A stretch of DNA of 38,621 nucleotides from Thermoflexales bacterium (GCA_007123205.1 SKLM01000304.1:1-38621); one strand, 5' to 3'. Shown: positions 9,768-36,868, counted from the first letter of the stretch. Translations and numbers: made by a program. Notes: generated by a model not told the origin, from the sequence alone.

Positions 9768-9787
9768 AGGTATGACCAGCGGCTCGG

Positions 9788-9814: not shown

Positions 9815-9827
9815 GAATTGACCGCTA

Positions 9828-10038: not shown

Positions 10039-10067
10039 TTGCCAATCGACGCACCTTCTGGTACGAT
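10039..10067 (+). promoter_or_regulatory. Sigma-70-type promoter upstream of the PBP gene
   Basis: TTGCCA (10039-10044), 17 nt, TGgTACGAT (10062-10067), 32 nt before the ATG at 10100. Confidence 0.55.
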
Positions 10068-10099
10068 GAGTGGCTCACCGGCGGGAGGTGGGGTAGCTA

Positions 10100-13000
10100 A
10101 TGACATCTGACGGAACAGTGCGTTACATCGCCTTGCGGCGACACAGAAACCGACGTTATCGTCAGCGGTCCGGCGTCCAGCAAGTGCTGCGCATCCTGAT
10201 CGTGGTATTCCTTGCCACTTTCATCGCGGTCTCGGCCTCCATCGTGGCGGGCGTCAGCGCCATCGGCGGCGCCTATGCCTACTTCACCCGCGATTTGCCC
10301 GCCCCTGCGGAGATCGAGGCGGCCGAGGAGGGGTTTGAGACCACGCAGATCTTCGACCGCACAGGCCAGCACATCATCGCCCGACTTATCGATCCCACAG
10401 GAGGCGAACGAGCGTGGGTATCCCTGGACCAGCTGCCAGACCATCTGATCCAGGCGACCGTGGCCAGCGAGGACCGCACGTTCTGGGACAATCCCGGCTT
10501 CAGCCCGCGGGGGATAGCCCGGGCCGCGTGGTCTACCGTCCGTGGGGACGAGATCCAGGGTGGTTCCTCCATCACGCAGCAGCTCATCAAGAACTTCGTC
10601 ATTGAGAGAGAGCGCCGCTACATTGGGCCCGAGGGACCGCAATGGGACGACTACGATCGGAAGATCACTGAGATCCTGCTCTCACACCGCATCACTGAAG
10701 TCTACAGCAAAGAACAGATCCTGGAATGGTACCTGAACACGAACTTCTACGGCAACCTCTCGCACGGCATTGAGGCAGCAGCCCAGGTCTACTTCGGGAA
10801 GAGCGCCAGCGAACTGACCCTGTCGGAATCGACCACACTGGTGGCGGTTCCGCAGAACCCGCGGATGAACCCTTTCGACAACCCCGACATGGCCCGCAGA
10901 CGCCAGGGCGTCGTGCTCGACAGCATGGTGCGAGACGGCTACATAACGGCCCAGGAAGCGAACATGGCCAAAGAAGAGCCGTGGGAGCTGGCCGAGGCAG
11001 AATCTCTCGCGCGCTTCGACATGCGGGCCCCGCACTTTGCTGTCTATGTGCGTAACCAGTTGGAGGGGATGCCGGAGGTCGGAGCTGGTGCTCTCTATCG
11101 CGGCGGGCTGCGCGTCTACACCACCGTGGACCTCGATCTCCACGAGCAAGCCCAATGTGCGGCGCAGACTCACCTACGCCGTCTTTCGGGGGAGGACGAG
11201 GTCCAGGTCATCCAGGAGGCTGTCGAGTCCGGTTGTGAGGCTGCGCGGTACCTGCCTCCCCTCCGTGCGGCGTCTGTAGGCAAGGATCACGACGTCAACA
11301 ACGCATCGGTGGTGGTCATCCGTCCGGGGACAGGCGAGATTCTGGCCCTGGTGGGCAGCGTCAACTTCTGGGACGACGGAATACACGGTCAGTACAATGT
11401 CGCCGTGGACGGGCTGGGACGGCAACCAGGCTCGTCCTTCAAGCCCTTTACCTACCTGACGCTGCTCTCCCAGGGTTACAACGCGGCCCACATGTTCCTC
11501 GACGTAAGACATACCTTCCCTCAACCCGTCGGGGAACCCTACATACCAGAGAACTATGACCGGCGCTACCACGGCCCCCAGCGCATGCGCCTGGCCCTGG
11601 CCCGCTCCTACAACATACCAGCAGTCTCGGCCCTCCAGATGGCCGGCATCGAGAACGTTCTCCGCACCGCCCATCGCATGGGCATCAACAGCCTCGACCG
11701 AGGACTGGATCACTACGGCCTGAGCCTGACGTTAGGAGGCGGCGAGGTACACTTGCTGGACCTGACCTATGCATTCAGCGTCCTCGCCAACAACGGCAGG
11801 ATGTACGGGGCGCCGGTGCGGGCGGAAGAGGCGCGCCGGGGGTTTCGCGAGCTTGATCCGGTGAGCATCTTGAGGGTTGAGGACCGCGATGGAAATATCC
11901 TCTATCAGTACGATCAGCCTGGGAGCGACGCCGTGCTCTCGCCCGAGCTGGCTTACCTGATGAACGATATTCTGGCCGATCGGCAGGCGCGCTGGGCAGC
12001 GATGGGCCAGGCCAACCCCCTGGAGCTGTCCGACGGTCGGCCGGCGGCGGCTAAGACGGGCACCACCGACGACTTCCGCGACTCCTGGACCGTCGGGTAC
12101 ACGCCGCAGCTGGCCGTCGGCGTCTGGGTCGGCAATACCGACAACAGGAAGATGGACGACGTGCCGGGAGTTCGGGGCGCTGCGCCGATCTGGCACGCCG
12201 TGCTGGAATACGCGCTCCGGGACGATCTATCCGTGCCTTTCAACCGGCCCGAGGGACTGATCACTCGATCAGTCTGCGCAGTCTCGGGCAAGCTCCCCAC
12301 CGACGACTGCCCGACGGTCACCGAGCTGTTCATCCCGGTCACCGAGCCGACGCAGCGATGTGACATCCATCAGACCTACCTCGTGAACCGGGAGACCGGG
12401 AGGTTGTGCACCGTCCATACCGATCCGGCGCTTTGCGAAGAGAGGACCTACGAGGTCTACCCCCCGGAGGCGGAGAGCTGGATCGACGCCCTTCCGGAGG
12501 ACCGGCGGCCGGAGAGACCGCCCACCGAATACGACACGATCTACGGTTCAACGCGCGGGGACGCAGATGTGGTCATCCTCTCCCCGGAGTCTTACGCCTA
12601 CGTAGCCGGCGTAATCCCCATCCATGGAAGCGCCCGGGGTGAGGATTTCAACTTCTTCCGTCTGGTGTTCGGCAGAGGGCTCAACCCCACCGAGTGGATC
12701 CAGATCGGGCCCGAGCATGCCCATCAGGTGGACCACGGCCTGCTGGAGAGCTGGGACACGGCTGGGTTGGATGGTCTCTATAGCCTGCGCCTTCAGGTCG
12801 TCGGGCATACAGGGGACGTCCGGGAACACGAGATCCAGGTCACCGTGGACAACGTCCCACCGACGGTCCGTGTCACCTACCCGACAGAGGGATCCCGATT
12901 CCAGCGAGCGAACCAGAGACGGGTCAGCATCAGCGCCGAGGTCGAGGACTACTCTCTGGACCGGGTAGAGTTCTATGCCTATGCCGGTGGCAAGGAGACG

Positions 13001-13171
13001 CAACCGGCGGGGCTCCAGCCGTTTTCCGTGCAGCGAGTCGCTCCATTCGCCGCCAACTGGACCCTCAGCGAGTCGACCAGCCTCGGTAGCCACACGTTCT
13101 ACCTCATCGCTTTCGACGCTGCAGGGAATAGATCGCGGAGCAATCTCGTGACGATCGAGATCGTCCCTTGA
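10100..13171 (+). CDS. Class A penicillin-binding protein (transglycosylase/transpeptidase) with a C-terminal Ig-like extension
   Basis: N-terminal TM anchor, GT51 motifs EDRTFWDNPGFS and GGSSITQQL, transpeptidase motifs SSFKPF (SxxK) and KTGTT. About 200 extra C-terminal residues are beta-rich. Confidence 0.93.
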   Translation: MTSDGTVRYIALRRHRNRRYRQRSGVQQVLRILIVVFLATFIAVSASIVAGVSAIGGAYAYFTRDLPAPAEIEAAEEGFETTQIFDRTGQHIIARLIDPTGGERAWVSLDQLPDHLIQATVASEDRTFWDNPGFSPRGIARAAWSTVRGDEIQGGSSITQQLIKNFVIERERRYIGPEGPQWDDYDRKITEILLSHRITEVYSKEQILEWYLNTNFYGNLSHGIEAAAQVYFGKSASELTLSESTTLVAVPQNPRMNPFDNPDMARRRQGVVLDSMVRDGYITAQEANMAKEEPWELAEAESLARFDMRAPHFAVYVRNQLEGMPEVGAGALYRGGLRVYTTVDLDLHEQAQCAAQTHLRRLSGEDEVQVIQEAVESGCEAARYLPPLRAASVGKDHDVNNASVVVIRPGTGEILALVGSVNFWDDGIHGQYNVAVDGLGRQPGSSFKPFTYLTLLSQGYNAAHMFLDVRHTFPQPVGEPYIPENYDRRYHGPQRMRLALARSYNIPAVSALQMAGIENVLRTAHRMGINSLDRGLDHYGLSLTLGGGEVHLLDLTYAFSVLANNGRMYGAPVRAEEARRGFRELDPVSILRVEDRDGNILYQYDQPGSDAVLSPELAYLMNDILADRQARWAAMGQANPLELSDGRPAAAKTGTTDDFRDSWTVGYTPQLAVGVWVGNTDNRKMDDVPGVRGAAPIWHAVLEYALRDDLSVPFNRPEGLITRSVCAVSGKLPTDDCPTVTELFIPVTEPTQRCDIHQTYLVNRETGRLCTVHTDPALCEERTYEVYPPEAESWIDALPEDRRPERPPTEYDTIYGSTRGDADVVILSPESYAYVAGVIPIHGSARGEDFNFFRLVFGRGLNPTEWIQIGPEHAHQVDHGLLESWDTAGLDGLYSLRLQVVGHTGDVREHEIQVTVDNVPPTVRVTYPTEGSRFQRANQRRVSISAEVEDYSLDRVEFYAYAGGKETQPAGLQPFSVQRVAPFAANWTLSESTSLGSHTFYLIAFDAAGNRSRSNLVTIEIVP

Positions 13172-13207
13172 CCGCATAACTCACGCACTGCGAAGAGTAC
13201 CCCATCA

Positions 13208-14014
13208 GTGACACCTGATAGACCCCATATTCTGGTAACAAACGATGATGGCATCAGGGCCCCCGGGTTGTTGGCCTTGAAGAACGCCTGCAGCAGACTG
13301 GGCAAGGTCACCATCCTGGCCCCCGCGCGCAACTGGTCGGCCTCCGGCCACGTCAAGACGATGCACAAACCGCTGCGCGTGGAGGAGGTACTCCTCGATG
13401 ACGGGACGCCAGCGCTCTCGACTACCGGGGCACCCTCCGACGCTGTAGCCCTGGCGCTTCTCGGCATCATCTCGGGGCCCATCGACCTGGTGGTCTCGGG
13501 TGTCAACGAGGGAGCCAACCTGGGCCACGATGTGACGTACTCCGGCACCGTCACTGCCGCGATGGAGGCCACTATCTTCGGTGTGGAGGCGGTTGCCGTC
13601 TCCCTCGACTCCCGCGAGTCCGACGATTTCTCAGTGGCCGCGATGTGGGGAGCCCGAGTAGGCCGCGCGGTCCTGGAGCGTGGGCTGCCCCGGGATGTGC
13701 TGCTTAACGTCAATGTCCCGCCCGTCTCAGCCGATCGGATAGCAGGCGTGAAGATCACACGAATGGGGCTCCGGATCTACCGCGACGAACTGACTGAGCG
13801 GGTTGATCCGCGGGGGCGGCCCTACTACTGGATCGTGGGACCGGAACCGACGGGCGTCGAGGATGAAGGTACCGATATCTGGGCCGTCGCCAACGACTAC
13901 GTTTCGGTGACCCCCATTCAGCTCGATCTGACGGCGCACAGGTTTATCGACTGTCTGCACGATTGGGATCTAGCGCGCGACGGCGTGGAACCGGACGAAG
14001 GGACATTCCGGTGA
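13208..14014 (+). CDS. surE: 5'/3'-nucleotidase SurE
   Basis: ILVTNDDGIRAPGL ... GVNEGANLG.DVTYSGTVTAAMEA. Confidence 0.92.
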   Translation: MTPDRPHILVTNDDGIRAPGLLALKNACSRLGKVTILAPARNWSASGHVKTMHKPLRVEEVLLDDGTPALSTTGAPSDAVALALLGIISGPIDLVVSGVNEGANLGHDVTYSGTVTAAMEATIFGVEAVAVSLDSRESDDFSVAAMWGARVGRAVLERGLPRDVLLNVNVPPVSADRIAGVKITRMGLRIYRDELTERVDPRGRPYYWIVGPEPTGVEDEGTDIWAVANDYVSVTPIQLDLTAHRFIDCLHDWDLARDGVEPDEGTFR

Positions 14015-22524: not shown

Positions 22525-23238
22525 TCACCCGCGACATGTGACGTCGCCGGCCAATTCTCGACCGCCCGTATCCACGTACCCGGCGGTCTCCAGGAGATAG
22601 GTCCCAGCCTCGTCCTGAGCATCCACAACCGAGAGGGGATGCCTTCCGGAACGGATGACCCACCGTGTGCACGCGACAACCACCGCCCGCCCCAGCCCGC
22701 GCTCGCGGGCAGCCGGGGTCACCTGGGCATAGATGCCTCCAAAATGAGGGGAAAGCCAACTCACCCCGGCCTCCGCCACGATCTCATCCTCCGAGCGAAC
22801 CAGAAAGCGAGGACGGCCCTCGATTCCCACGTCGGGCACGACCAGGACATTCACCTCCTGGTTCAGGCGCGACAGATCGACCTCATAGATCCGGTTGATC
22901 TGCACCTCGGCCATCTGCACCACCTCGGCCACGGCCTCCTGCAGATGAAGCGTGGTCACCAGGTAGTAAGGCCGCCCGGGCTTCAACGCCCGGCGCAGCA
23001 ACTCGACGGCGACGTCCGGATCCAGGGCACGAAGCGCGACGGTCGGTTGGAACAACCTCTGGGCCGTCTGGCAGACGGCCACAAACCCATCGGCCCGCCC
23101 CGCGGTGCCCTCATGGACGTAAAGCTCCGTGCGCTCGGGATCGTGATAGAACCCGTAGTAGGTGTAGAGGGCATCGGCCGGTGCCGATAGGCTGAGCATT
23201 GGACGGATTTTGAGGCGAAGGGCATCGAATTCAGCCAT
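22525..23238 (-). CDS. GNAT-like acetyltransferase (FR47-like C-terminal domain)
   Basis: The C-terminal ARERGLGRAVVVACTRWVIRSGRHPLSVV...ETAGY resembles the acetyl-CoA binding segment of GNATs. The N-terminal half is not recognised. Confidence 0.5.
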   Translation of the reverse strand: MAEFDALRLKIRPMLSLSAPADALYTYYGFYHDPERTELYVHEGTAGRADGFVAVCQTAQRLFQPTVALRALDPDVAVELLRRALKPGRPYYLVTTLHLQEAVAEVVQMAEVQINRIYEVDLSRLNQEVNVLVVPDVGIEGRPRFLVRSEDEIVAEAGVSWLSPHFGGIYAQVTPAARERGLGRAVVVACTRWVIRSGRHPLSVVDAQDEAGTYLLETAGYVDTGGRELAGDVTCRG

Positions 23239-27859: not shown

Positions 27860-29233
27860 ATGACCCAGTACAAGTACCTGCTAGAAGAAGACCAGATGCC
27901 GACCCACTGGTACAACATCCTCCCCGACATGAAGACCCCACCGCCACCGTACCGGCACCCGGTGACGCTTGATCTGATGGCCCCGGGCGATCTAGCACCG
28001 GTGTTCCCCCAGCCGCTGATTGAGCAGGAGATGAGCCCTGAACGGTGGATCGAGATCCCGGATGAAGTACGGGATGTCCTCAAGATGTGGCGCCCCTCGC
28101 CGCTCTATCGAGCGGTGCGCTGGGAGAAGGCCCTTGACACGCCGGCCCGCATCTACTACAAGTGGGAAGGCGTGAGCCCGCCGGGCAGTCACAAACCGAA
28201 TACCGCCGTGGCCCAGGCCTACTACGGCAAACAGGAAGGACTCGAGGGATTCGCCACGGAGACGGGGGCCGGTCAGTGGGGCAGCGCCCTGGCCTTCGCC
28301 ACCCAGTTCTTCAACATGAAGTGCAAGGTCTTCATGGTCACCATCAGCTTCCACCAGAAGCCCTACCGCCGTGTCATGATGGAGACCTGGGGCAGCGACG
28401 TCGTGCCGAGCCCCAGCTCCGAGACCAACGCGGGACGGAGCATCCTGGAGGTCGATCCCGAGACCACCGGAAGCCTGGGTATCGCCATCAGCGAAGCCAT
28501 CGAGTACGCCGTCACCCACGACGGCTGGAAGTACTCCCTGGGCAGCGTGGTCAATTTCGTGATGCTGCACCAGACGGTAGTAGGCTTGGAGGCCCGCCAG
28601 CAGATGGAGATGGCGGGAGACTACCCGGATATCCTCGTCGGCTGCGTGGGGGGCGGGAGCAACTTCGCGGGCCTCTTCCTCCCCTTCGTGAAGGACAAGC
28701 TGGATGGCAGCAAGCCAGATATGCGGGTGATCAACGTGGAGTCGACGGCCTGCCCCAGCCTGACGCGCGGCCTCTACGCCTACGACTGGGGTGACACAGC
28801 CAAGACGGGCCCGGTGGCCAAGATGCACACCGTAGGCCACGACTTCATCCCGGCGCCCGTCCACGCGGGCGGGCTGCGCTATCACGGCATGGCCCCCATC
28901 ATCTGCAGCCTGATGGACGACGGTTTCGTCGAGGCCGCAGCCTACAACCAGCTCGAGATCATGGCGGCGGCTCATAGCTTCGCTCGCGCGGAGGGGCACA
29001 TCGTGGCGCCCGAGACAGCCCACGCGCTTAAGGCCACCTACGACGAGGCCATAGCTTGCAGAGAGTCGGGTGAATCGAAGGTGATCCTCTTCAACTGCAG
29101 CGGTCACGGCCACTTCGATCTCGCCGCCTACGACGCCTACCACCGCGATGAACTCGTCGATTACGAGTTGAGCGAGAAGGCGCTGCAGGAAGCCCTGGCA
29201 AAGCTCCCCGAGGTGCCCCCCCTCAAGGAGTAG
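27860..29233 (+). CDS. trpB: TrpB2-type tryptophan synthase beta-like PLP enzyme
   Basis: 457 aa with the TrpB2-type N-terminal extension ([12 protein letters not shown]...) and the PLP-lysine motif [22 protein letters not shown] lies upstream. Confidence 0.87.
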
Positions 29234-29285: not shown

Positions 29286-29313
29286 TTGCCCTCTCGCCCC
29301 GTCTGGGTAGAAT
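29286..29313 (+). promoter_or_regulatory. Candidate promoter for the ThiS/MoaD-like gene
   Basis: TTGCCC (29286-29291), 16 nt, TAGAAT (29308-29313), about 105 nt before the ATG. Confidence 0.4.
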
Positions 29314-29420
29314 CTGGGAGCCGTACGGCGTTGGAACCTCCGGGGCGCGGGGGTTGGAGCCGGGTCAGGACGGGGGGCCGCAGAAGACCTCGTCGGGTCC
29401 CTTTTTGCTGGAGCAGACCG

Positions 29421-29609
29421 ATGAGAATCCGTTACCGGGACAAGGAATGGGAACTGGAAGGTGAGCGGACCGTCCGTGAGGCGATCAAGGCAGTGGGGCT
29501 CACCCCAGAGACGGTGGTCGCCGTGCGTGATGGCCGGGTATTGAGTCAGGGGACGCTGCTGGAGGAAGGGGAAGAGATCAAGCTTCTGGCCGTGATCACG
29601 GGAGGTTAG
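29421..29609 (+). CDS. ThiS/MoaD-family ubiquitin-like sulfur-carrier protein (C-terminal Gly-Gly)
   Basis: 62 aa, MRIRYRDKEWELEGERTVREAIKAVGLTPETVVAVRDGRVLSQGTLLEEGEEIKLLAVITGG, with the stop directly after GG. GGAG lies 7 nt upstream of the ATG. Confidence 0.7.
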   Translation: MRIRYRDKEWELEGERTVREAIKAVGLTPETVVAVRDGRVLSQGTLLEEGEEIKLLAVITGG

Positions 29610-29645
29610 TGCTCAACCACGCTTGTCATTCCGAGGAGCGGCGTG

Positions 29646-29671
29646 ACGAGGAATCCCCCTCTTCGCCACCG
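29646..29671. repeat. 26-nt dispersed direct repeat, copy 1
   Basis: acgaggaatccccctcttcgccaccg, 25/26 identical to 29867-29892. gtcattccg also occurs twice (29625 and 29782). Confidence 0.85.
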
Positions 29672-29688
29672 AGGGGCTGGGGATGGGA

Positions 29689-29715
29689 CGCAGATTTGCG
29701 CAGATCTTCGCAGAT
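29689..29715. repeat. Three helically phased copies of cgcagat (10-bp period), with a fourth at 29744
   Basis: cgcagatttg cgcagatctt cgcagatgga, then cgcagatgtg at 29744-29753. Confidence 0.8.
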
Positions 29716-29866
29716 GGATACAATCGCTAAGAGCGCAGATGTGCACTGAACGCACTAGAGAGACAGCGAAGCCCCATAGCGGTCATTCCGGGTGATCCAT
29801 AGCGCGCACACCACTCAGAATGCGAGTACCTCGGATTGCAGCTGGAGTTACGTGGTAGCATCAGCA

Positions 29867-29892
29867 ACGAGGAATCTCCCTCTTCGCCACCG
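29867..29892. repeat. 26-nt dispersed direct repeat, copy 2
   Basis: acgaggaatctccctcttcgccaccg. Confidence 0.85.
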
Positions 29893-30044
29893 CGGCAACC
29901 CGCGACCTCCGCTCCGGGCGGATCCGATTTGCGGGGCATATGGCACCCATGTGGTAGACGCGCTGCCACAGTCAGCCCGGCTATGCTGCTGCCTGGAGCG
30001 TGGCCGGAGCGGAGCGAGTGGTACTCGATCCTCTTGCGTGTGAT

Positions 30045-31184
30045 CTAATCCCAGATGCCCGGGATCTGGTGACGGCACGAGGGACACCCACCGTCCTCAA
30101 TCTGGTTGGAGATGACCTGGTAGTGAACCCTCTCAATGAGGAGCTGGCCACACTGGGGACAGAAAGTGGAGTTTGCCCGGTGACCCGGAACGTTGCCGAT
30201 CGTCACGTACTCCAGTCCTGCCTGGGAAGCTATCTCTGCAGCCTTCTCCAGGGTCGCAATGGGAGTGGGCGGCAGTCTGGTCAGCTTGTAGGCGGGGAAG
30301 AATCGGCTGAAGTGGACCGGCACGTCGGTCCCGAGCTCGTCTCTGATCCACGAAGCCATCTCCGCTATACCCTCCAGATCATCGTTGAGGGTGGGGATGA
30401 TCAAGTTGGTGATCTCAAACCAGACCCCTTCTGCTTTCATGATCTGGAGAGCGGTTAGCACCGGTTTCAGTTCAGAGAATGACGTGTGCTCGTAGAAGTC
30501 CGCGCTGAAGGCCTTCAGATCAACGCACACAGCATCCATGTGTCGCAAGAGTGCCCGCAGAGGCTCGGGGTTGATCGCCCCATTGGTGTGGAAGAGCGTT
30601 TTTAGCCCTTCCTGTTGAGCTCGCTCGGCGACATCGACCATGTATTCATAGAACACGGTTGGCTCGTTGATGGTGCAGGAAATGGACTGGCAGTTTCTCT
30701 CACCTGCCAGCTGAACCACCTGCATAGGAGATAGCTCAACCGCGTCGATCTCCTCCGGCAGTTTCGTCGCGACGTGCCAGTTGTGGCAAAAACTGCACAT
30801 AAAATTGCAGCCCGCCGTGTAGAGCGCCAGGTTCCGATGGCCAGGAAGCATATGGTAGATCGGTTCTAGCTCCACCGGGTCAACCTGGGTGCCAGCCGCC
30901 TTTCCATAGACTAGAGAGAAGAGCACGCCGTCCCGATTCTCCCTGACTCCACAGTACCCTCTTCCTCCCTCGGGAATCGCGCAGTTTCTGAAACAGAGCT
31001 GGCATTGGACCATCTTCCTGTCGAGTGCTGTCCAGTAACTGGCTTCGTGGAGGCGTTCTGGACGAAGGGAGGACGCATTACCAAAGATAGACATCCGCGA
31101 CGCCACCTTCCCTCCGATGACAGCAGCCGATGTCAGGGCCGCCATCTTGATGAACCCCCTTCTGGTCAAGCAGATCCTCCTCAC
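30045..31184 (-). CDS. AmmeMemoRadiSam-type (PflA-like) radical SAM enzyme with a Tat-like N-terminus (paralog 1)
   Basis: GTG start with GGAGG 6 nt upstream. N-terminal LTRRGFIKMAALTSAAVIGG. N-terminal Cys cluster CQLCFRNCAIPEGGRGYCGVREN. Radical SAM CX3CX2C motif GCNFMCSFCHNW. C-terminal zinc ribbon CPQCGQLL...CPSC. Confidence 0.85.
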   Translation of the reverse strand: MRRICLTRRGFIKMAALTSAAVIGGKVASRMSIFGNASSLRPERLHEASYWTALDRKMVQCQLCFRNCAIPEGGRGYCGVRENRDGVLFSLVYGKAAGTQVDPVELEPIYHMLPGHRNLALYTAGCNFMCSFCHNWHVATKLPEEIDAVELSPMQVVQLAGERNCQSISCTINEPTVFYEYMVDVAERAQQEGLKTLFHTNGAINPEPLRALLRHMDAVCVDLKAFSADFYEHTSFSELKPVLTALQIMKAEGVWFEITNLIIPTLNDDLEGIAEMASWIRDELGTDVPVHFSRFFPAYKLTRLPPTPIATLEKAAEIASQAGLEYVTIGNVPGHRANSTFCPQCGQLLIERVHYQVISNQIEDGGCPSCRHQIPGIWD

Positions 31185-31323
31185 CGTTCACCTCCGCGTA
31201 TGCTCAGTCCAGGCACAGCGACTGTTGCCAGGTACCGAGGACAGCAGCAGTCGCCTGGCACGCTCCAAAACCCTCCAGCGACGAAGGGAAGGTCTCGAGC
31301 CAACCGGGACTCCGGGGCATCTC

Positions 31324-33606
31324 CTACGCCACCCCAATCAGCAAGGCCAGGCTGGCCAGCTTGAAGATGACGACGGTCAGACAGGTCCCCCTGATCCCGA
31401 GAATCGGGATGAGAAACACGCTGGTCAATAGGGCACCGAACACGGCGCCTGTCAGATCAGACGCATAGAGGCCGCCAGCCACCCGCCCAAAGCCTCCCTG
31501 GCTCGTCCCCAGGTAGATCTTGTTTGCCAGGGGGAATTGCAGACCCACCAGCAACCCGGCCAGGCAGTTCAGCAGAGTAAGGGGCGTTTCCTGTGGCAAT
31601 AGTCGAGACAGATCAGCGATCTCGGGAAGACGCATCACAAGGAACGGAAGTAAGATCGCGTAGCCAATAATGGCCACCTCTGTGCTGACCAGGGCACGCA
31701 CGTCCCTCCTCACGTTCTCCACGATCCCGGCCATAGCCAGTGCACCCAGAGCCAGCCCCAGCATAAAGGCGGCAACCAGGACACCGATTCGCTGATAGAG
31801 AAGGCCGTGGAAGATCTGAAACACGAGCATCAGGACGATGTTGAGCGTCATCCCGGCGAAACCGGTGGAGGCTATGGCGAGGATCACCGCCGCGTTTCTG
31901 AACCGTGCCTCTCCCGCTTTGCGTCTGATCGCCGTCAGGACAAGGACCAGGAGGGCCGCGGGGGTCAACGCCCACCACAGGTCCAGCCCGGACATCCAAG
32001 CGAAGAAACGGCCCCAAGCCGGATAGAACATCGCGTTCCAGAGCGCCAGATTGTGGTAGGTGGCGATGGGCCGCAGATCGCGGTTGATCGGGGCCTGATC
32101 CGCCAGATAGGGGATCAGAAGGCGCTCAGTCCGTTCCGGCGAAAGCCGGTACTTAAGATACGGGACGTTGAGGAGCCTCGTCTCCAAGTCCCTTTCCTCG
32201 AACCGGTGCGGAATCTCGCCCGGTTCGAGAGCAGAAGGCGAGGCCAGGAGAACCGTCCAGTCCCCAGGGATCACCGAGACGTGCGAAAAAACCGCGCTGG
32301 TGGTTTCGTAGATGGATCGGTTGTGCTCAATCATCTCTCTGCTCATATAGGCCTCGGAGGCTGGAACGCCAAAGGAGAAGACACCCTCCAGACTCAAGCG
32401 CTCAACGACCTCCTGGAAGAACTCCTTCGTGTAAGCGCGGTTCAGCTGCAGAGTAGAGGGAGGAGGCAGGCTGACAATGATGACATCGTATTCCTCCCGC
32501 GCATGCCTGACGAACACCCGAGCGTCGGTATGGATGATCCGTACTCTTGGATCATCCAGAGCCTGCGCGCTGGAGTACTTCCGAGCTGCCTCAATCATCA
32601 GGGGGTCGAGCTCAACGTAGTCCACTCTGTCGATCGGATGCTTCAGGATTTCCTCCAGGACCCCACCGATTCCCCCACCGACGAGGAGGACCGCTTGCGG
32701 CGCAGGATGAGAGAGCAAGGGGTAGTGGGCCATCTCCTCGACGAAGACGATATCTGGATCCGGGCTCGTGAAGGCCAGGAGCCCGCTGAAGTAGAAGCTG
32801 GTTTGCCCCTCGCTTTCGGTAGCGGCGATATTCCCGTAGACCGAATCTTGATGGTGAACCAGATGGTATCCTTTCCATTGCCATTCGCGAGAGAGTTGCT
32901 CTACCCGATCGAGGTTCCCAGAAAGCCATGATTGGACACCCAGGCCCAGGATGAGGATGATCGGGCCAACCAGAAATCTGGTCAGAAGTTCTTGTGGCTG
33001 CTGCCAGGGCCTGAGCAGAATAACCCCCGCCATCAGATTCAAGAGAACTGCGAGCAGGGCTATCTCGAAGGCATGAAAGCGGTGAACCAACAGGTAGGTG
33101 AACCCAGCGCCACCTATCATGCACCCCAGCGCTTCAGCCACGTAGATCTTGCCGACCTCCCTGGCCGGCGTCTCAGCTCCGGCCGCCAAAATCCGGCAGC
33201 CAAGGGCAAACTGAGCACCGATCAGCACACAGACGGGAGCCAGAAGCAGGAAGGAGGAGTAGAGGATCGGCAGGAGGCCAACCATCTCGCCAGGCTTGAC
33301 CCCGATCAGGTTGTTGATGCCTCTAGCCAGGAGGATCTGAACCGGCAGAATCAGGCAGAAGAGGATCTGGGTGATCACGAACACGGAGGCCCGAGCCGGG
33401 ACGCGGTCAGCAGCTCTTCCCAGAGTCCAGCTTCCGACAGCAATCAGGAAGAGCCAATTGGCAAGGATCACGCCCAGAGCAAGCTCGTTGCCCTGAAAGT
33501 TGGTCATCAGCTCTCTGATCATCAGGACCTGAGAGACCGTCTCGCCGAAGCCAACTGCCAGGAAAGCCAGAATCAGCGGCTTCACCTTCACTCTCTCATC
33601 TCCCAC
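31324..33606 (-). CDS. Polytopic membrane protein with a central spermidine-synthase-fold domain (fused MFS/spermidine synthase family)
   Basis: About 7 N-terminal and 5-6 C-terminal hydrophobic helices flank a Rossmann domain, VLLVGGGIGGVLEEILKH...VDYVELDP...YDVIIVSLPPPS...YTKEFFQ. This aligns with the SpeE motifs GGGDGG / E(I/L)D / D(V/I)II.DS.DP. Confidence 0.82.
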   Translation of the reverse strand: MGDERVKVKPLILAFLAVGFGETVSQVLMIRELMTNFQGNELALGVILANWLFLIAVGSWTLGRAADRVPARASVFVITQILFCLILPVQILLARGINNLIGVKPGEMVGLLPILYSSFLLLAPVCVLIGAQFALGCRILAAGAETPAREVGKIYVAEALGCMIGGAGFTYLLVHRFHAFEIALLAVLLNLMAGVILLRPWQQPQELLTRFLVGPIILILGLGVQSWLSGNLDRVEQLSREWQWKGYHLVHHQDSVYGNIAATESEGQTSFYFSGLLAFTSPDPDIVFVEEMAHYPLLSHPAPQAVLLVGGGIGGVLEEILKHPIDRVDYVELDPLMIEAARKYSSAQALDDPRVRIIHTDARVFVRHAREEYDVIIVSLPPPSTLQLNRAYTKEFFQEVVERLSLEGVFSFGVPASEAYMSREMIEHNRSIYETTSAVFSHVSVIPGDWTVLLASPSALEPGEIPHRFEERDLETRLLNVPYLKYRLSPERTERLLIPYLADQAPINRDLRPIATYHNLALWNAMFYPAWGRFFAWMSGLDLWWALTPAALLVLVLTAIRRKAGEARFRNAAVILAIASTGFAGMTLNIVLMLVFQIFHGLLYQRIGVLVAAFMLGLALGALAMAGIVENVRRDVRALVSTEVAIIGYAILLPFLVMRLPEIADLSRLLPQETPLTLLNCLAGLLVGLQFPLANKIYLGTSQGGFGRVAGGLYASDLTGAVFGALLTSVFLIPILGIRGTCLTVVIFKLASLALLIGVA

Positions 33607-33618
33607 CTCTTCGTCCCG

Positions 33619-34764
33619 CTACTTCCAGATCCCGGGAATGGGGTGGCCACAGAACTGACACGCTCCGTCCTGGACATGGTTGCCCAGCACGCTGAAATGG
33701 ACCCTCTCAATCAGGATCCGGCCGCACTCGGGGCAGTACGTCGAGTTGGCCATATGCCCCGGGACATTGCCGATATAGACGTATTCGAGTCCTGCCGCCA
33801 GGGCGATATCCCGGGCCTTCTCCAGCGTCTCAACTGGAGTAGGCGGCAGTCGAGTCTGCTTATAGGCGGGGAAGAACCTGGTGAAATGGAGCGGGACTCC
33901 TGGCCCCATCTCATCTCTGATCCAGAGGCACATCTCTCCGATTCTGTCCAGGTCATCGTTCAAGGTCGGGATAATCAGGTTGACGATCTCGCACCAGGTC
34001 CCTTGCTCCTCAATCACCTTCAAGGTGGTCAAAACCGGCTCCATGCGGGCGTGGGAGACGGTCGTTTGGTAGAACTCGCTGGTAAACGCCTTGAGATCCA
34101 CGTTGACGGCGTCCAGATGGGGAAGAAGCTCCTTAAGGGGGTCAGGGCTCATCGCGCCATTCGTGTTGAGGAGGGTTCGCAGGCCCCTGTTGCGGGCCAG
34201 CCTGGCGATGTCGTACATATACTCGTAGAAGATGGTCGGTTCCGTGTAGGTAAAGGCGACGAACTCCAGGTTGTTCTCCACTGCCACGTCCACGGCCTCT
34301 TCTGGGGACAGGTCGTGGCTCTCCACTTCTTCGGGAGCCCGGGTGGCGATCTCCCAGTTATGACAGAAGCTGCATCTGAAGTTACAGCCGGCCGTGGCCA
34401 GGTTGAGACGCAGGCTGCCGGGGACGACGTGATAGAGGGCCAGTTTCTCCATCGGAGAACCGGGGGTGACGGAGCACGGCCTCCCATAGACCAGGGAGTA
34501 GAGGGTTCCGCGCCGATTCTCCCTGACGCCACAGAATCCCCTTCCGCCCTCGCGAATGGTGCAGTTTCTGAAGCAGAGCTGGCACTGAACCGTGTTTCCC
34601 TCGAGTCGTGTCCAGTGTCTTGCTTCTCCAGAGGGCTCCAGGCCAGGGGGCGACCGAGAACTCATGGGACTCCTGCGGCATGCAATCTTCCCGCCGACCG
34701 CGGCGAGAGAGGTCAAGGCCGCGATCCTGATGAACCCTCTTCTCGTCAGTCCGGTTCTACCCAT
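33619..34764 (-). CDS. AmmeMemoRadiSam-type radical SAM enzyme with a Tat-like N-terminus (paralog 2)
   Basis: Start at MGRTGLTRRGFIRIAAL (ATG 34762-34764, GGAGGGAG upstream). Contains CQLCFRNCTIREGGRGFCGVREN, GCNFRCSFCHNW and CPECGRIL...CQFC. The track ORF extends to 34881. Confidence 0.85.
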   Translation of the reverse strand: MGRTGLTRRGFIRIAALTSLAAVGGKIACRRSPMSSRSPPGLEPSGEARHWTRLEGNTVQCQLCFRNCTIREGGRGFCGVRENRRGTLYSLVYGRPCSVTPGSPMEKLALYHVVPGSLRLNLATAGCNFRCSFCHNWEIATRAPEEVESHDLSPEEAVDVAVENNLEFVAFTYTEPTIFYEYMYDIARLARNRGLRTLLNTNGAMSPDPLKELLPHLDAVNVDLKAFTSEFYQTTVSHARMEPVLTTLKVIEEQGTWCEIVNLIIPTLNDDLDRIGEMCLWIRDEMGPGVPLHFTRFFPAYKQTRLPPTPVETLEKARDIALAAGLEYVYIGNVPGHMANSTYCPECGRILIERVHFSVLGNHVQDGACQFCGHPIPGIWK

Positions 34765-34837
34765 GATCTCCCTCCCTCTGTCTGTGGCTGCGGAGGCATG
34801 TCGCCCGGCGGTGGTGGTGTAGCGGTGTTGGATCCCT

Positions 34838-34867
34838 ATTCTACCCTGAAGTAGCCCTTCGGCGCAA
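34838..34867 (-). promoter_or_regulatory. Candidate promoter of the radical SAM cassette
   Basis: Minus strand reads TTGCGC (34862-34867), 18 nt, TAGAAT (34838-34843), about 70 nt upstream of the paralog-2 start. Confidence 0.3.
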
Positions 34868-34980
34868 GGCTGAGTGTCCATTCATCGACCGGTCTGCCGA
34901 AGGCGCCGCGGAGTCGCGTTCGGGCGCCTGTCTGTCCTGGTGATACAGCGCGTCTGCCGATTGACCACAGAACTGGTTGT

Positions 34981-35473: not shown

Positions 35474-35923
35474 CTAGTAGTCCGGGTCTTCGCTCGAACT
35501 TGCTCTACTCGCCAACCATCGCCGGACGGACCTGACAGATCGCTCCAAGTCCTCAAGACGATGCACGGCCTTGTACACTTCGCCCCAATCGACAGCCACA
35601 CACTCGTGCACTAGGGCATTAGGGAAGCCGGCCACGGGCGCCAGTTGCCGAGCGAAGTCCGCCTGCAAGACACCCAACCCGCCCATGCTTAAAGTGGCAT
35701 CGTAGTCGTCGATTGGCTTCCGAGCACCTTCTATGGAGATGATGCGGTGGCTGATGTCGATGCAGCACCGGGCCGAGACCTCAAGGTTGCGTTCTATGCC
35801 GTCACGCAGGTAGGGGTCTTTGTGGACCTCAATCCGTGGCCTGTCGATGAGCGGCTTCAACCTGACCAAGCGGTCGCTCAGTTCGTCTAAGCGTCGCTCG
35901 ATACCGGCGAACTCGGCGGTCAT
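35474..35923 (-). CDS. DUF86/HEPN-domain protein (HepT-like toxin homolog)
   Basis: ERNLEVSARCCIDISHRII and GFPNALVHECVAVDW match the DUF86 layout, with P in place of the R-x4-H arginine. AAGGAG at 35930-35935 gives 6-nt spacing to the ATG at 35921-35923. Confidence 0.72.
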   Translation of the reverse strand: MTAEFAGIERRLDELSDRLVRLKPLIDRPRIEVHKDPYLRDGIERNLEVSARCCIDISHRIISIEGARKPIDDYDATLSMGGLGVLQADFARQLAPVAGFPNALVHECVAVDWGEVYKAVHRLEDLERSVRSVRRWLASRASSSEDPDY

Positions 35924-36323
35924 AGTCATCTCCTTGCAGGATATCTCTGCGCTGCCTGCGCAGCACGGGCAGGAGATCGCCGTAACGACTCAAGACAGTG
36001 GCCTCGCAGTCGGCCCGCGTCGCCACATCCTGCTCGTAATGCACCTTGCCCTGCGCAACGACGGCGTAGGCCAACTCAATCGGAGCACGATTCAGGAGCA
36101 CCACGTCGATCCGGTCCGTCTGGAGAACGCAAGCTAACTTGTGGGCCACGCGAGCGCGCAGCCGAGGTCCGTCGGCGGCGCTGTCGACCAGGACAGCGAG
36201 GTCGAAGGCGCTCATGGGGCCGAGGTTGTTCACGACTCGCGAGCCAAAAAGATAGACAATTCGCAGGCCCTCAAGGCTCGGCGAGACGGTGGGCAATTCG
36301 TCCTTCAGTGCTTCTGCTTCCAT
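35829..36323 (-). CDS. Minimal nucleotidyltransferase (MntA-like antitoxin homolog)
   Basis: RIVYLFGSRVVNNLGPMSAFDLAVLVD ... RIDVVLLN, a Pol-beta NTase GS-x(n)-[D]xD layout in which the first acidic residue is Ala. Start at MEAEALKDE (36321-36323). The 3' end overlaps the HEPN gene by about 95 nt. Confidence 0.68.
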   Translation of the reverse strand: MEAEALKDELPTVSPSLEGLRIVYLFGSRVVNNLGPMSAFDLAVLVDSAADGPRLRARVAHKLACVLQTDRIDVVLLNRAPIELAYAVVAQGKVHYEQDVATRADCEATVLSRYGDLLPVLRRQRRDILQGDDYDRRVRRYRATLRRTERPLGQVEAAHRQATD

Positions 36324-36868
36324 ACGTTCTAGTCTTCCATAGCCAGGGCGGATCCGCAACAGGGTGCGGCCGTTCTCTCTTTCCCAAGTCCGTCCAGTCC
36401 CCCTTGTCGAGACTGTGCTAGGCAATCCCTTGCCCGCGACACCCGCTCTTGCTCTCATCGGATCTCAAGGCTCACTTTCCAGTCAGCCACGTTGTCTGAG
36501 GCAGGGCCTGCAGTCGTTTTTGTGCCAGCTCGTGGAGCACGAACCAGGGCAACGGGAGGCGGAGGACCCGTTCCCACTCCGGTCGAGGGTCCGAGATTGC
36601 CTCCTCCGATGCCTCGCGCTTTCATCCCCGGTCACAGAGCGCCGGTTTGCCTTCGACTAAGGCGAGATCAGGCTCCCCACGGGGGCCCTGAGGGAGTCAG
36701 AGTGTCCCTGACGCTCGTTGTGCTGTCAGATGGTCCGCGACCGGCGGCTTCCCCCACCAGACGGAGAAGCCGGTGGATGGAGAACCCTCTGCCGAAGGGC
36801 CCAGGCGCCCTCCCGTTGCGGTTGGGCTCGCAAGTACTCCATCGGATCGGTCAACCTGCGGCCGCCCA

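Follow-up and report, generated by a model that had tools for sequence, protein, structure and literature searches.

A candidate envelope module of anaerobes that pairs radical SAM enzymes with a permease carrying a spermidine-synthase-fold domain

Three co-directional minus-strand genes in a 38.6-kb window from a Thermoflexales genome (the window being the whole stretch of DNA analyzed) encode two radical SAM enzymes, here called rSAM-B and rSAM-A, with a membrane protein between them. The best explanation of this cassette, judging from sequence comparison and predicted structures, is that it is one case of a widespread envelope module of anaerobes, of which we found no prior description in the literature. 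Our preferred reading, to which we give slightly less than an even chance, is an extracytoplasmic radical SAM module in which the permease domain of the membrane protein supplies or holds SAM. A preliminary description of this DNA had proposed a membrane- or envelope-associated, SAM-centered module, and the sequence and structure predictions support and extend that proposal. The features are as follows.

30045..31184, minus strand: rSAM-B, 379 aa, TIGR04337-type radical SAM enzyme
31095..31184, minus strand: predicted Tat-type signal of rSAM-B, (M/V)RRICLTRRGFIKMAALTSAAVIGGKVAS-R
31324..33606, minus strand: membrane protein gene, 760 aa, 14-TM MFS-type with a central spermidine-synthase-fold domain
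31327..32091, minus strand: amphipathic helices and TM8-TM14 (aa 506-760), second hairpin limb and second MFS half
32092..32877, minus strand: SpdS/SpeE-fold domain (aa 244-505), predicted on the outer face, matched to SpeE structures by Foldseek and phmmer
32458-32487, minus strand: DVIIVSLPPP, in place of the catalytic D-x-x-D-P segment of aminopropyltransferases
32662-32679, minus strand: GGGIGG, glycine loop without the dcSAM-selecting Asp
32878..33606, minus strand: TM1-TM7 (aa 1-243), with TM1-6 the first MFS half and TM7 the first limb of the central hairpin
33619..34881, minus strand: rSAM-A, mechanical ORF
33619..34764, minus strand: rSAM-A from its likely start M40, 381 aa, MGRTGLTRRGFIR, TIGR04337-type radical SAM enzyme
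34675..34764, minus strand: predicted Tat-type signal or anchor of rSAM-A, MGRTGLTRRGFIRIAALTSLAAVGGKIAC-R

Gene calls and conserved neighborhood

The arrangement of two rSAM paralogs around a membrane protein was confirmed overall, and the ORF coordinates agree with the close spacing first reported, with gaps of 139 nt between rSAM-B and the membrane protein gene and 12 nt between that gene and rSAM-A. These gaps shift slightly in the public gene calls, which give 755 aa for the membrane protein and 374 aa for rSAM-B. The most likely start of rSAM-A is M40 (MGRTG) rather than the ORF end at 34881, in agreement with the public gene call (P0131).

By sequence comparison, the synteny of rSAM and membrane protein, on which the idea of a cassette depends, is kept across many phyla. 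An rSAM adjoins the membrane protein in 37 of the 43 loci with 2.5 kb or more of sequence on either side, and all six of the AmmeMemo-type rSAM homologs looked up adjoin a Spermine_synth protein of 738-772 aa (one of these proteins is truncated to 576 aa by the end of its contig). A second Tat-tagged rSAM family, which is PflX-like and a distant relative of the first (25% identity), has the twin arginine (RR) in 117/120 homologs and adjoins the membrane protein gene in three of four look-ups, and also in 12 fetched loci. The genes are tightly coupled, with start and stop codons that overlap in places, and the set recurs among numerous anaerobic bacteria as well as some archaea, the phyla including Bathyarchaeia.

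Relatives often carry accessory genes as well, whose products either shuttle electrons across the membrane or are exported proteins. They include DsbD_2 (11 loci); CcdA/DsbD-like, NosR/NapH-like, Fer4_5, and signal-bearing nitroreductase-like genes; and Memo-AMMECR1 fusions that carry a lipobox (lipoproteins) and are encoded beside lgt, such fusions adjoining the membrane gene in eight loci. Genes of the CcdA or NapH-like kind are absent from the window. The absence of an AMMECR1 or MEMO1 partner, noted earlier, was borne out, as tblastn (E > 0.4) and Pfam scans of the larger ORFs found no AMMECR1/Memo homolog in the window, and none was found in collinear contigs.

Radical SAM enzymes with predicted N-terminal signals

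Both enzymes score far above the 220-bit cut-off of the TIGR04337 profile (350.5 bits for rSAM-B, 334.5 bits for rSAM-A), and every AmmeMemoRadiSam hallmark claimed for them is found in the translations: CQLCFRNC.I.EGGRG.CGVREN, GCNF.CSFCHNW, a C-terminal CP.CG...C..C, and a terminal IPGIW. They are 59% identical across 100% of their length, within the range of about 55%-65% estimated by eye, and appear from sequence and fold to be old paralogs within the PflA-like TIGR04337 family. Each has three conserved Cys clusters (an N-terminal CX2CX3CX9C, the radical SAM CX3CX2C, and a C-terminal four-Cys ribbon), and 11 cysteines are invariant among 64 rSAM homologs. Canonical TIGR04337 enzymes partner with AMMECR1/Memo. 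The window enzymes share the scores (334-350 bits) and the three Cys motifs of this uncharacterized NCBIfam family but differ in having no AMMECR1/Memo in the window, in their Tat-type signals or anchors, and in their constant MFS/SpdS-fold neighbor. The closest solved fold to the AF2 model of rSAM-B (pLDDT 91.1) is PflA (PDB 3CB8, also 8FO0; for 3CB8, TM-score 0.80 normalized to PflA, rmsd 2.7 Å), and both have an open partial TIM barrel that would suit a protein substrate. Unlike PflA, with which identity is 17%, the window enzymes carry extra Cys-rich modules at both ends as well as an export signal, score far under the PflA cut-offs, and have no glycyl-radical enzyme nearby.

A twin-arginine signal or anchor is predicted at the N terminus of each enzyme. 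Translation verified the LTRRGFIK and LTRRGFIR sequences on which the preliminary description based its claim of two Tat signals, and against the TIGR01409 Tat-signal HMM (cut-off 16.7 bits) rSAM-B scores above the threshold (17.8 bits for the whole protein, 22.8 bits for the N terminus alone), whereas rSAM-A falls slightly short (16.1 bits). In the signal of rSAM-A, a Cys followed by RR resembles the Tat-lipoprotein-like ends of homologs (LTAC-RR, LLSC-VRRE); in the AF2 model of rSAM-B, a helix (8-31) is followed by a disordered linker (32-41). The h-regions of both are weakly hydrophobic, and the flanks of the rSAM signals carry a net charge of +2.8 to +3.4 on the N-side of the hydrophobic core and of about 0 to -1 on the C-side. 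A hydrophobic N-terminal extension is present in 110/120 of the nearest rSAM homologs, but RR occurs in only 56 of those 110, and among more distant homologs roughly one in two is without it. This counts against the preferred reading; Sec-type insertion would move an unfolded Fe-S enzyme. Signals tend toward the cleavable AxA type in diderm lineages, while anchors or lipobox-like ends are found in Chloroflexota, Atribacteria, and Bathyarchaeia, and at some loci a signal is missing from one of the rSAM paralogs.

Tat-exported or -anchored Fe-S proteins, such as the Rieske protein and hydrogenase small subunits, use an S/T-R-R-x-F-L-K signal that in some cases stays on the protein as an N-terminal anchor, and signal-less partners can be carried along. 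The window rSAMs are predicted to resemble these proteins in being cofactor-loaded and bearing such a signal, although many rSAM homologs lack the RR. To our knowledge, none of the known Tat Fe-S proteins is a radical SAM enzyme, and we know of no exported radical SAM enzyme of any kind. The earlier characterization of a Tat-tagged rSAM as highly unusual seems apt: we found no literature report of exported rSAMs, and the signals or anchors are conserved among homologs.

A permease with an embedded spermidine-synthase-fold domain

The PGAP family name of the membrane protein is "fused MFS/spermidine synthase," and it matches the corresponding model, named in the preliminary description, at 61.4 bits (NF037959, cut-off 40) and PF01564 at 96.5 bits. 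A SpeE fold between about seven and about six TM helices had been described; the embedded domain and the first seven helices stand, but the second set also numbers seven, according to the AF2 model (pLDDT 92.2, pTM 0.92) and the internal repeat. TM1-6 and TM9-14 align as homologous, parallel repeats (hhalign probability 98.3%, E = 1.8e-14), and Pfam MFS_1 matches 13 of the 63 membrane-protein homologs (best E = 2.8e-16). Used as a query, the aa 506-760 segment retrieved 1,854 cluster representatives (50% identity) at E <= 1e-10, the full-length proteins (~730-820 aa) among them being matched typically at about residues 500-770 and the others being shorter sequences. The protein is thus predicted to be a 6+6 MFS-type permease in which the central loop became a two-helix hairpin (TM7/TM8), with a complete spermidine-synthase-fold domain on its outer tip. 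That domain is predicted to be extracytoplasmic because of positive-inside statistics (K+R of 19.4 on predicted inner loops and 3.5 on outer loops, inner exceeding outer in 63/63 homologs) and the MFS architecture, in which a 6+6 repeat and an odd number of helices before the domain place it outside. The 14-TM DHA2 and POT types of MFS transporter likewise have two homologous 6-TM halves, termini inside, and two extra helices between the halves, and the window protein has an MFS-like basic G-R-x-x-D-R loop between TM2 and TM3. It differs from them in the 260-residue enzyme-fold domain at the hairpin's outer tip, and transport by it is a prediction. Golgi SAM transporters also belong to the MFS.

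The protein has the entire SpeE fold (PDB 1INL, 1UIR), with the N-terminal beta-hairpin domain as well (Foldseek E = 2e-14; phmmer E = 9e-27), and the TM1-7 plus SpeE layout of the membrane-bound PRK03612 type aligns over residues 32-480; in contrast to SpeE, the protein scores under all equivalog cut-offs, and its domain is predicted outside the cytoplasm. The altered signature segments described earlier were verified: GGGIGG and DVIIVSLPPP occupy the places of GGGDGG and DVIIIDSTDP in the alignment with T. maritima SpeE, and we take D101, D170, and D173 of that enzyme to correspond to I, S, and P here. The window protein lacks the dcSAM-selecting Asp and the two catalytic ones. Across the 63 homologs, this loss is complete at two positions, with position 313 (the GGGDGG Asp) never acidic (A/I/V/L/M) and position 379 (the first catalytic Asp) never Asp (N/G/T/S), but not at the third, the second catalytic Asp position being acidic in 10. 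The ribose/adenine-binding residues E332, D334, and D361 vary little or not at all, as is true of H294, R390, N389, and E290. By alignment and model, the domain retains the side chains that grip the adenosyl moiety of SAM and lacks the acidic ones for dcSAM selection and aminopropyl transfer, in keeping with the earlier view that the middle protein is probably not a spermidine synthase.

Alternative readings and a proposed mechanism

It is extremely improbable that the middle gene encodes a genuine membrane-bound polyamine aminopropyltransferase with unrelated rSAM neighbors: the PF01564 match and source annotations naming homologs "spermidine synthase" would fit, but equivalog cut-offs are not reached (TIGR00417, 101.5 vs. 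249.55; PRK03612, 202.5 vs. 472), the acidic residues are lost, and synteny with the rSAMs is conserved. An unlikely alternative is that the outer-face domain is a working SAM-dependent N-methyltransferase, as in fungal NHMT and the SpdS-like domain of METTL13, with the MFS part supplying SAM or acceptor, and that rSAMs and methyltransferase act one after the other on a shared target, an exported protein or envelope molecule. Fungal NHMT (AN4663) has seven TM helices followed by a SpdS-fold domain, uses SAM, has Ile for the Asp/Glu of GxG(D/E)G while retaining the SAM-binding Glu, and methylates the N-terminal His of LPMOs, which are secreted, its TM domain being required; the paper describing it considers the transport of SAM into secretory compartments and cites the Golgi as a precedent for providing lumenal methyltransferases with SAM (PMC10349129). 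The window protein shares this architecture and the Asp-to-Ile change, 26/63 homologs match an MTS methyltransferase model and others match generic methyltransferase models, and H294, R390, N389, and E290 could form an acceptor site. However, the acceptor-site motif of known N-methyltransferases (NPPY/DPPY) is absent, the equivalent segment reading (N/G)-L-P-x-P, and the comparison with NHMT covers the SpdS domain and the layout. Further, NHMT has neither the second 7-TM half that completes the 6+6 repeat nor an rSAM partner, the window family is not known as a methyltransferase, and methylation by itself leaves the constant partnership with exported rSAMs of two families unexplained.

Quite unlikely is a scheme in which the rSAMs have the membrane protein as their substrate or radical-bearing partner and, as PflA-like activases or maturases, would modify a residue in its SpdS-like domain, possibly once per molecule with SAM carried out enzyme-bound. 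The closest structure is indeed PflA with bound peptide substrate, both associated rSAM families are PflA-like, and the genes are tightly coupled; yet inspection of conserved residues in the domain recognized neither a glycyl-radical-type motif nor a conserved Cys, and the canonical enzymes pair with AMMECR1/Memo rather than with this membrane protein. We also think it improbable that all parts face the cytoplasm, the N-terminal helices tethering the rSAMs to the inner face (compare the amphipathic helix of viperin on the ER) and RR being an ordinary positive flank, for membrane-tethered chemistry on, for example, a lipid. The cytoplasmic location of SAM, flavodoxin or ferredoxin, and Fe-S assembly, the many homologs without RR, and the weak h-regions all favor this, but the repeat architecture, the charge bias of loops and signal flanks, the AxA and lipobox-like ends among homologs, and the lipoprotein Memo-AMMECR1 fusions, Lgt, CcdA, and NapH-like proteins encoded nearby in relatives argue against it. 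Very unlikely, finally, is a dispersed canonical AmmeMemoRadiSam system with its true partners elsewhere in the genome and the membrane protein accessory or merely adjacent. The TIGR04337 scores, the eight Memo-AMMECR1 loci, and the nesting of signal-less canonical-type rSAMs within signal-bearing clades of the rSAM tree are consistent with it, although AMMECR1/Memo are absent from the window and collinear contigs, the constant neighbor is the membrane protein, and a non-TIGR04337 rSAM family pairs in the same way.

Under the preferred reading of an extracytoplasmic module, the rSAMs would fold and gain their Fe-S clusters in the cytoplasm, be carried loaded across the membrane by the Tat system, and act at the outer face, free or tethered, beside the permease. 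The permease would deliver SAM to that face or take 5'-deoxyadenosine and methionine away from there, with the outward domain of the permease capturing the nucleoside and handing it over to the rSAMs, whose open PflA-like barrel may act on a protein or other large envelope substrate. Neither SAM nor a low-potential reductant is known to be available beyond the cytoplasmic membrane; electrons would have to cross it, in many relatives via the neighboring CcdA/DsbD-like or NapH/NosR-like proteins, and in the Thermoflexales genome the genes for electron delivery would sit outside the window. We infer the SAM-supply role only from the permease's architecture and its pairing with two rSAM families; as these are distant, they could share one target instead. 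Taken from sequence and structure prediction, the gene set suggests radical chemistry outside the cytoplasm.

The cassette and its chromosomal setting

The cassette consists of two genes for radical SAM enzymes (rSAM-A and rSAM-B) on either side of a membrane protein gene, all on the minus strand. The ORF calls are as follows.

Open reading frames of the cassette
30045..31184, minus strand: rSAM-B
31324..33606, minus strand: membrane protein
33619..34881, minus strand: rSAM-A (gaps between the three ORFs, 139 and 12 nt)

The true start of rSAM-A is almost certainly Met-40, which gives a gene at 33619..34764 and a protein of 381 aa with the N-terminus MGRTGLTRRGFIR..., in agreement with the gene calls of the public assembly (protein P0131).

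The surrounding genes form an ordinary chromosomal set that includes hrcA-grpE-dnaK-dnaJ, a class A PBP, surE, trpS and thyX. Features closer to the cassette are a gene pair that could be a sulfur-carrier/PLP-enzyme pair, a direct repeat, and a toxin-antitoxin pair.

Features flanking the cassette
27860-29233, plus strand: TrpB-like PLP enzyme, convergent with the cassette
29286-29609, plus strand: small ThiS-fold protein ending GG (62 aa in the public call), after the TrpB-like gene
29646-29674 and 29867-29895, intergenic: 29-nt direct repeat, copies 93% identical, downstream of rSAM-B
35474-36458, minus strand: HepT-like RNase and MNT-type nucleotidyltransferase (toxin-antitoxin pair), directly upstream of the cassette

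A locus from another Thermoflexales MAG (L001) is collinear with the window from 34944 down to 25207 at 86-89% nucleotide identity, with an identical rSAM, membrane protein, rSAM order. Collinearity stops at ~34944, so the HepT/MNT region differs between the two genomes. The ~221 nt bracketed by the direct repeat are absent from the otherwise collinear L001, and this stretch therefore looks like a small insertion in the window. The cassette has a G+C content of 0.59 compared with 0.62-0.65 around it (0.586-0.590 across 30001-34000 vs. 0.616-0.644 in the flanking 2-kb bins). A gathering-threshold scan of the window gave no Rfam match, and promoter and terminator scans gave counts no higher than expected from shuffled sequence. 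ARAGORN called an 89-nt tRNA-Gly(GCC) at 23023-23111 (minus strand) where Rfam finds no tRNA anywhere in the window, which leaves the call in doubt unless the gene is an unusual one. We also considered and rejected a RiPP-type cassette that encodes a precursor peptide, as the small ORFs in 29500-30100 resemble noise and the intergenic region has only the direct repeat.

The radical SAM proteins and their N-terminal signals

Both outer proteins belong to the AmmeMemoRadiSam-type rSAM family to which the preliminary description had assigned them from motifs. The whole-protein HMM TIGR04337 (AmmeMemoRadiSam system radical SAM enzyme) scores 350.5 bits for rSAM-B and 334.5 for rSAM-A against a curated cut-off of 220, and the cysteine motifs are all kept. 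In a 64-sequence alignment eleven cysteines are invariant (C61/C64/C68/C78, C126/C130/C133, C342/C345/C367/C370), of which C126/C130/C133 form the CX3CX2C radical SAM triad, flanked by N- and C-terminal four-cysteine motifs. The two proteins share 59% identity, within the 55-65% estimated by eye when they were called paralogs. A neighbor-joining tree places rSAM-A with Candidatus Hakubella and Atribacteria sequences and rSAM-B with a WS2 sequence; because the two are not sisters, the duplication is old, and a recent tandem duplication can be ruled out, as each sits in a different subclade with relatives from other phyla. A glycyl-radical activase with its enzyme can be set aside as well: the PflA models TIGR02493/02494 score 54-59 bits against a cut-off of 231.75, both rSAMs are far below the cut-offs of NrdG and other activase models, and no glycyl-radical enzyme gene occurs among the window ORFs scanned.

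The AlphaFold2 model of rSAM-B (pLDDT 91.1) has a single N-terminal helix at residues 8-31, a disordered linker at 32-41 (pLDDT 47) and then the catalytic core. We found no solved structure for this family; the nearest to the model is 3CB8, PflA with SAM and a peptide substrate (TM-score 0.80 normalized to PflA, 17% identity).

The N-terminal helix bears on where these enzymes act. Translation gives MGRTGLTRRGFIRIAALTSLAAVGGKIAC-R for rSAM-A and (M)RRICLTRRGFIKMAALTSAAVIGGKVAS-R for rSAM-B, and both carry a Tat-type motif followed by an h-region and a basic c-region (LTRRGFIR-IAALTSLAAVGG-K-IAC and LTRRGFIK-MAALTSAAVIGG-K-VAS). The motif is of the S/T-R-R-x-F-L-K type with a mildly hydrophobic h-region, and it is kept in the closest orthologs. 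The Tat-signal HMM TIGR01409 (cut-off 16.7 bits) recognizes rSAM-B, at 17.8 bits over its whole length and 22.8 when only the N-terminus is scored, and gives rSAM-A 16.1 bits, just under the cut-off. The earlier proposal that both enzymes are Tat-tagged is supported by motif for the pair and by HMM for rSAM-B, with rSAM-A falling marginally short.

A signal or anchor at this position is conserved in the family, as judged from sequence. Among the 120 nearest database homologs of rSAM-B, 110 have a hydrophobic extension before the first cysteine motif, and most of these have a basic n-region.

Basic residues in the n-region of the 110 extension-bearing homologs
RR: 56
RxR: 18
KR or RK: 8
Single K or R: 26
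No K/R: 2

The net charge of the rSAM homologs averages +2.8 over the 15 residues that precede the uncharged core (median 17.5 residues) and -0.15 over the 15 that follow it, which by the positive-inside rule makes these N-termini probable N-in/C-out signals or signal-anchors. About half of the homologous N-termini lack the twin arginine, yet they resemble strong type II anchors. Diderm lineages mostly have cleavable-looking signals with AxA, and Chloroflexota, Atribacteria and Bathyarchaeia have long helices with the common pattern R(R/L)R-x-x-E-[IL]-x-A-L-x-S-F-x-x-I-G-G, of which the ...AALTS..V.GG in the window is a recognizable relative. Several homologs combine the RR motif with a lipobox-like L-x-[AGS]-C and then RR, and rSAM-A is similar, ending ...KIAC-RR. 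Public gene calls cut off the signal or anchor of some homologs, including that of rSAM-B itself (31170-31184); thus, database lengths understate how common the signal is. For instance, a Bathyarchaeota rSAM is called at 348 aa, and its ORF runs on upstream with MRPRLRLGLEVTALVVFVLIGLVLIS (L094:11349-11460, minus strand).

The membrane protein and its SpeE-fold domain

The only Pfam match of the membrane protein is Spermine_synth (PF01564; 96.5 bits). It passes the subfamily model NF037959, 'fused MFS/spermidine synthase' (61.4 bits against a cut-off of 40), and PGAP gives the same name to homologs P0051 and P0100. Sequence and structure prediction show the family membership of all three cassette proteins.

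An AlphaFold2 model built with 63 homologs (pLDDT 92.2, pTM 0.92) predicts seven TM helices, a complete SpeE fold that includes the N-terminal beta-hairpin domain (residues ~245-500), two amphipathic helices, and seven more TM helices. The embedded domain and the first seven helices agree with the preliminary description, which had counted about six helices after the domain rather than the seven modeled. The last helix, of 54 residues, corresponds in the alignment to a pair of helices in the first half. Profile-profile comparison with hhalign aligns TM1-6 (residues 4-198) to TM9-14 (567-757) in the same orientation (probability 98.3%, E = 1.8e-14), which rules out an inverted-repeat (7+7 antiparallel) transporter fold. 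Pfam MFS_1 is matched by 13 of 63 family members (best E = 2.8e-16), with no match by the window protein itself. The parallel repeat and the MFS_1 matches point to a 6+6 MFS-type permease in which, according to the model, the central MFS loop is turned into a TM7/TM8 hairpin with the SpeE-fold domain at its far tip. A PDB structural search aimed at the TM domain was uninformative about the TM fold, since all 50 matches listed were SpeE-type.

In the MFS superfamily the termini and the basic TM2-TM3 loop, here G-R-A-A-D-R, are cytoplasmic, and this arrangement would put the SpeE-fold domain outside. Loop charge offers evidence for an outward domain that is independent of the MFS architecture: across the 63 homologs the loops hold 19.4 K+R on the predicted cytoplasmic side vs. 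3.5 on the other, with inner exceeding outer in 63/63.

Foldseek matches the domain to 1UIR and 1INL with E of ~1e-14 to 1e-11, and its active site has changed throughout the family. In an alignment to T. maritima SpeE, GGGDGG becomes GGGIGG, DVIIIDSTDP becomes DVIIVSLPPP and YHEM becomes VEEM, so that the window protein has I313, S379 and P382 at the acidic sites. In aminopropyltransferases the two Asp of D-S-x-D-P bind and deprotonate the amine, and the GGGDGG Asp selects decarboxylated SAM (dcSAM).

Residues of 63 homologs at the acidic sites of SpeE
Position 313 (dcSAM-selecting Asp in SpeE): A/I/V/L/M, acidic in 0/63
Position 379 (first catalytic Asp): N/G/T/S, Asp in 0/63
Position 382 (second Asp): acidic in only 10/63

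The glycine loop, E332, D334, D361, D374, H294, N389 and R390 are invariant or nearly so in the same sequences; E332 corresponds to the residue that binds ribose in SpeE and class I methyltransferases, and D361 lies in the adenine-binding position. This pattern indicates that the nucleoside site has been kept and that the dcSAM-specific and amine-attack chemistry has been lost, a conclusion that residue conservation and the model establish at the level of prediction. The equivalog TIGR00417 gives 101.5 bits against a cut-off of 249.55, and PRK03612 (NF002956, membrane-bound polyamine aminopropyltransferase) gives 202.5 against 472, aligning only to residues 32-480 and leaving TM8-14 without a counterpart. 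On the missed cut-offs and the missing catalytic Asp residues we reject a true spermidine synthase or PRK03612 member, as the altered signature had suggested at the outset, and we regard a genuine aminopropyltransferase as hardly credible.

Conserved pairing, competing readings and implications

We scanned one genome per species for relatives of the membrane protein and found 146 (34-81% identity). We kept 80 loci, and in nearly all of them the match spans almost the whole protein. The phyla represented are Chloroflexota, Omnitrophota, Planctomycetota, Desulfobacterota, Cloacimonadota, Zixibacteria, KSB1, Ignavibacteriae and others, including the cultured Desulfobulbus alkaliphilus DSM 24258 (L071), and the protein database added homologs from Bathyarchaeia. 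The C-terminal TM half alone retrieved 1,854 50%-identity cluster representatives at E <= 1e-10; in the full-length matches (~730-820 aa) it typically lies at ~residues 500-770, and the remaining matches are shorter sequences.

When the ORFs of 81 loci were clustered, the dominant neighbor was a PflA-like radical SAM gene, present in 63 loci, with every other cluster in <=11. The rSAM gene adjoins the membrane gene in 37 of the 43 loci that have >=2.5 kb on both flanks. In the reverse direction, six of six rSAM homologs looked up (one each from Deltaproteobacteria, Bathyarchaeia, Candidatus Hakubella and Atribacteria, and two from one metagenomic contig) adjoin a Spermine_synth protein of 738-772 aa, or of 576 aa in the one cut at a contig end. 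The comparison of neighborhoods that the preliminary description called for thus reveals a signal- or anchor-bearing rSAM paired with the membrane protein across bacterial phyla and in one archaeal class, as far as sequences and predictions allow this to be established. Two rSAM genes occur in the window, L001, L002, L026, L032, the Atribacteria locus L084 and L085/86; one member of the pair is signal-less in L084 and likewise in L085/86.

The neighbor belongs instead to a PflX-like rSAM family in 12 of the loci fetched. This family, marked by the motif FEPAYL.LH..GEL (e.g., L071:8419-9489; P0241-P0360), is only ~25% identical to the window rSAMs, reaches the threshold of no NCBIfam model, and is listed in databases just as 'radical SAM protein'. 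It is very large, with at least 8,000 members at E <= 1e-30 (all 8,000 candidates scored), and the Tat motif [IM]-T-R-R-x-F-[LF]-[EK] is present in 117 of its 120 nearest members, about half of which have AxA. In three of four look-ups the PflX-like gene either directly follows a Spermine_synth membrane gene of 763-770 aa or overlaps it. Since both families adjoin it, the membrane protein is the common partner of two export-tagged rSAM families.

Accessory genes in relatives point to the outer face and to a trans-membrane electron supply. A DsbD_2 (CcdA-like) gene occurs in 11 loci, from Omnitrophota, where it separates the rSAM gene from the membrane gene, and from Dehalococcoidia and Atribacteria; these are largely lineages whose rSAM N-termini lack RR. 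Fer4_5 (NapH/NosR-type) proteins are encoded in Hakubella, Atribacteria, metagenomic and Bathyarchaeota loci. The Bathyarchaeota locus, on a 1.5-Mb contig, has nitroreductase, membrane protein, anchored rSAM, DsbD_2 and Fer4_5 together. Immediately upstream of its MFS/SpdS gene are a second large protein of 821 aa with a faint Spermine_synth match (L094:4643-7108, minus strand) and a PCMT-like methyltransferase (L094:7284-7949, plus strand). A convergent operon faces the membrane gene in Omnitrophota and Planctomycetia (L027, L045, L050, L055 [8250-13781, minus strand], L061, L074 and L076). Its products are a nitroreductase-like protein with a signal, Lgt, an FMN-binding Fe-S membrane protein that resembles NosR/NapH, a TIGR04337 rSAM that has no signal, and a Memo-AMMECR1 fusion bearing the lipobox L-F-S-C. 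An exported Memo/AMMECR1 appears to have gone undescribed so far. The window has none of the DsbD_2, Fer4_5, nitroreductase-like, Lgt or Memo-AMMECR1 accessory genes.

We consider it probable that the SpdS-fold and rSAM domains are extracytoplasmic. The fuller mechanism that we propose is about as plausible as not, with the balance tipped slightly against it: Tat would export the rSAMs with their clusters in place, and they would act on the outer face; the permease would supply SAM or remove its cleavage products, its domain holding the nucleoside for the rSAMs; and electrons might arrive through CcdA- or NapH-like proteins. We know of no route for building Fe-S clusters after Sec-type translocation. 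The open, PflA-like barrel suggests a protein or another large envelope molecule as substrate. The sources of extracytoplasmic SAM and of low-potential reductant are hypothetical in this scheme.

The closest characterized analogue of the membrane protein in architecture is NHMT (AN4663), a fungal N-terminal histidine methyltransferase with seven TM helices followed by a SpdS-like domain, which resides in the ER, needs its TM domain, and methylates the N-terminal histidine of secreted LPMOs (PMC10349129). SpdS-like N-terminal methyltransferases (NHMT, METTL13) share with the window protein a non-acidic residue in GxG(D/E)G and a SAM-binding Glu; GGGIGG and E332 correspond to I322 and E340 of NHMT, in which the Asp-to-Ile change is the published criterion that separates it from spermidine synthases, and its authors suggested that secretory compartments may be limited by their SAM supply (PMC10349129). 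An outward-facing, genuine N-methyltransferase of this type working alongside the rSAMs would leave the constant rSAM partner to be explained; we consider it unlikely, though the strongest of the competing readings. That the membrane protein is itself the substrate of the rSAMs would fit the adjacency of the genes, and we think it improbable.

To our knowledge radical SAM enzymes have been regarded as confined to the cytoplasm, since that is where SAM, low-potential reductants and Fe-S assembly occur. A tether purely on the cytoplasmic face would respect this view and would run against both the MFS topology and the loop charges; it strikes us as similarly improbable. A canonical AmmeMemoRadiSam system that is merely dispersed seems a shade more doubtful still. 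The AMMECR1/Memo/rSAM triad is conserved up to humans, its function long unknown, and its gene contexts are said, in work by Burroughs and colleagues from 2019, to be linked to base and isoprenoid modification. Memo-AMMECR1 fusions do adjoin the membrane gene in eight related loci; no AMMECR1 or Memo homolog is found in the 38.6-kb window (tblastn E > 0.4), as had been noted earlier, or in the collinear contigs.

Full-text literature searches turned up no account of radical SAM enzymes that are exported, periplasmic or Tat-dependent, nor of this rSAM/membrane-protein gene pair. The parts carry database names ('fused MFS/spermidine synthase', 'spermidine synthase', 'AmmeMemoRadiSam system radical SAM enzyme', 'pyruvate formate lyase activating enzyme', 'radical SAM protein') and are catalogued, uncharacterized families, and the system they form is without a described counterpart. 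More tentatively than for the mechanism, we suggest that this could be the first radical SAM system outside the cytoplasmic membrane, in which two Tat-exported or anchored rSAM families work with a dedicated MFS permease whose outward SpdS-fold domain delivers or holds SAM and with CcdA/DsbD- or NapH/NosR-like electron transfer, in many anaerobic bacterial phyla and Bathyarchaeia, with Memo-AMMECR1 lipoproteins in some.

On this evidence, the labels 'spermidine synthase' and 'pyruvate formate lyase activating enzyme' seem to be wrong for thousands of genes. Should the topology prediction fail, the cassette would still be a new membrane-tethered SAM module. If the Memo-AMMECR1 lipoprotein link is true, it would be a first handle on AMMECR1/Memo function. 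Further, the conserved pairing predicts a prokaryotic transporter that exports or presents SAM, and it implies that anaerobes may carry out SAM-dependent radical chemistry at the cell surface or in the periplasm.
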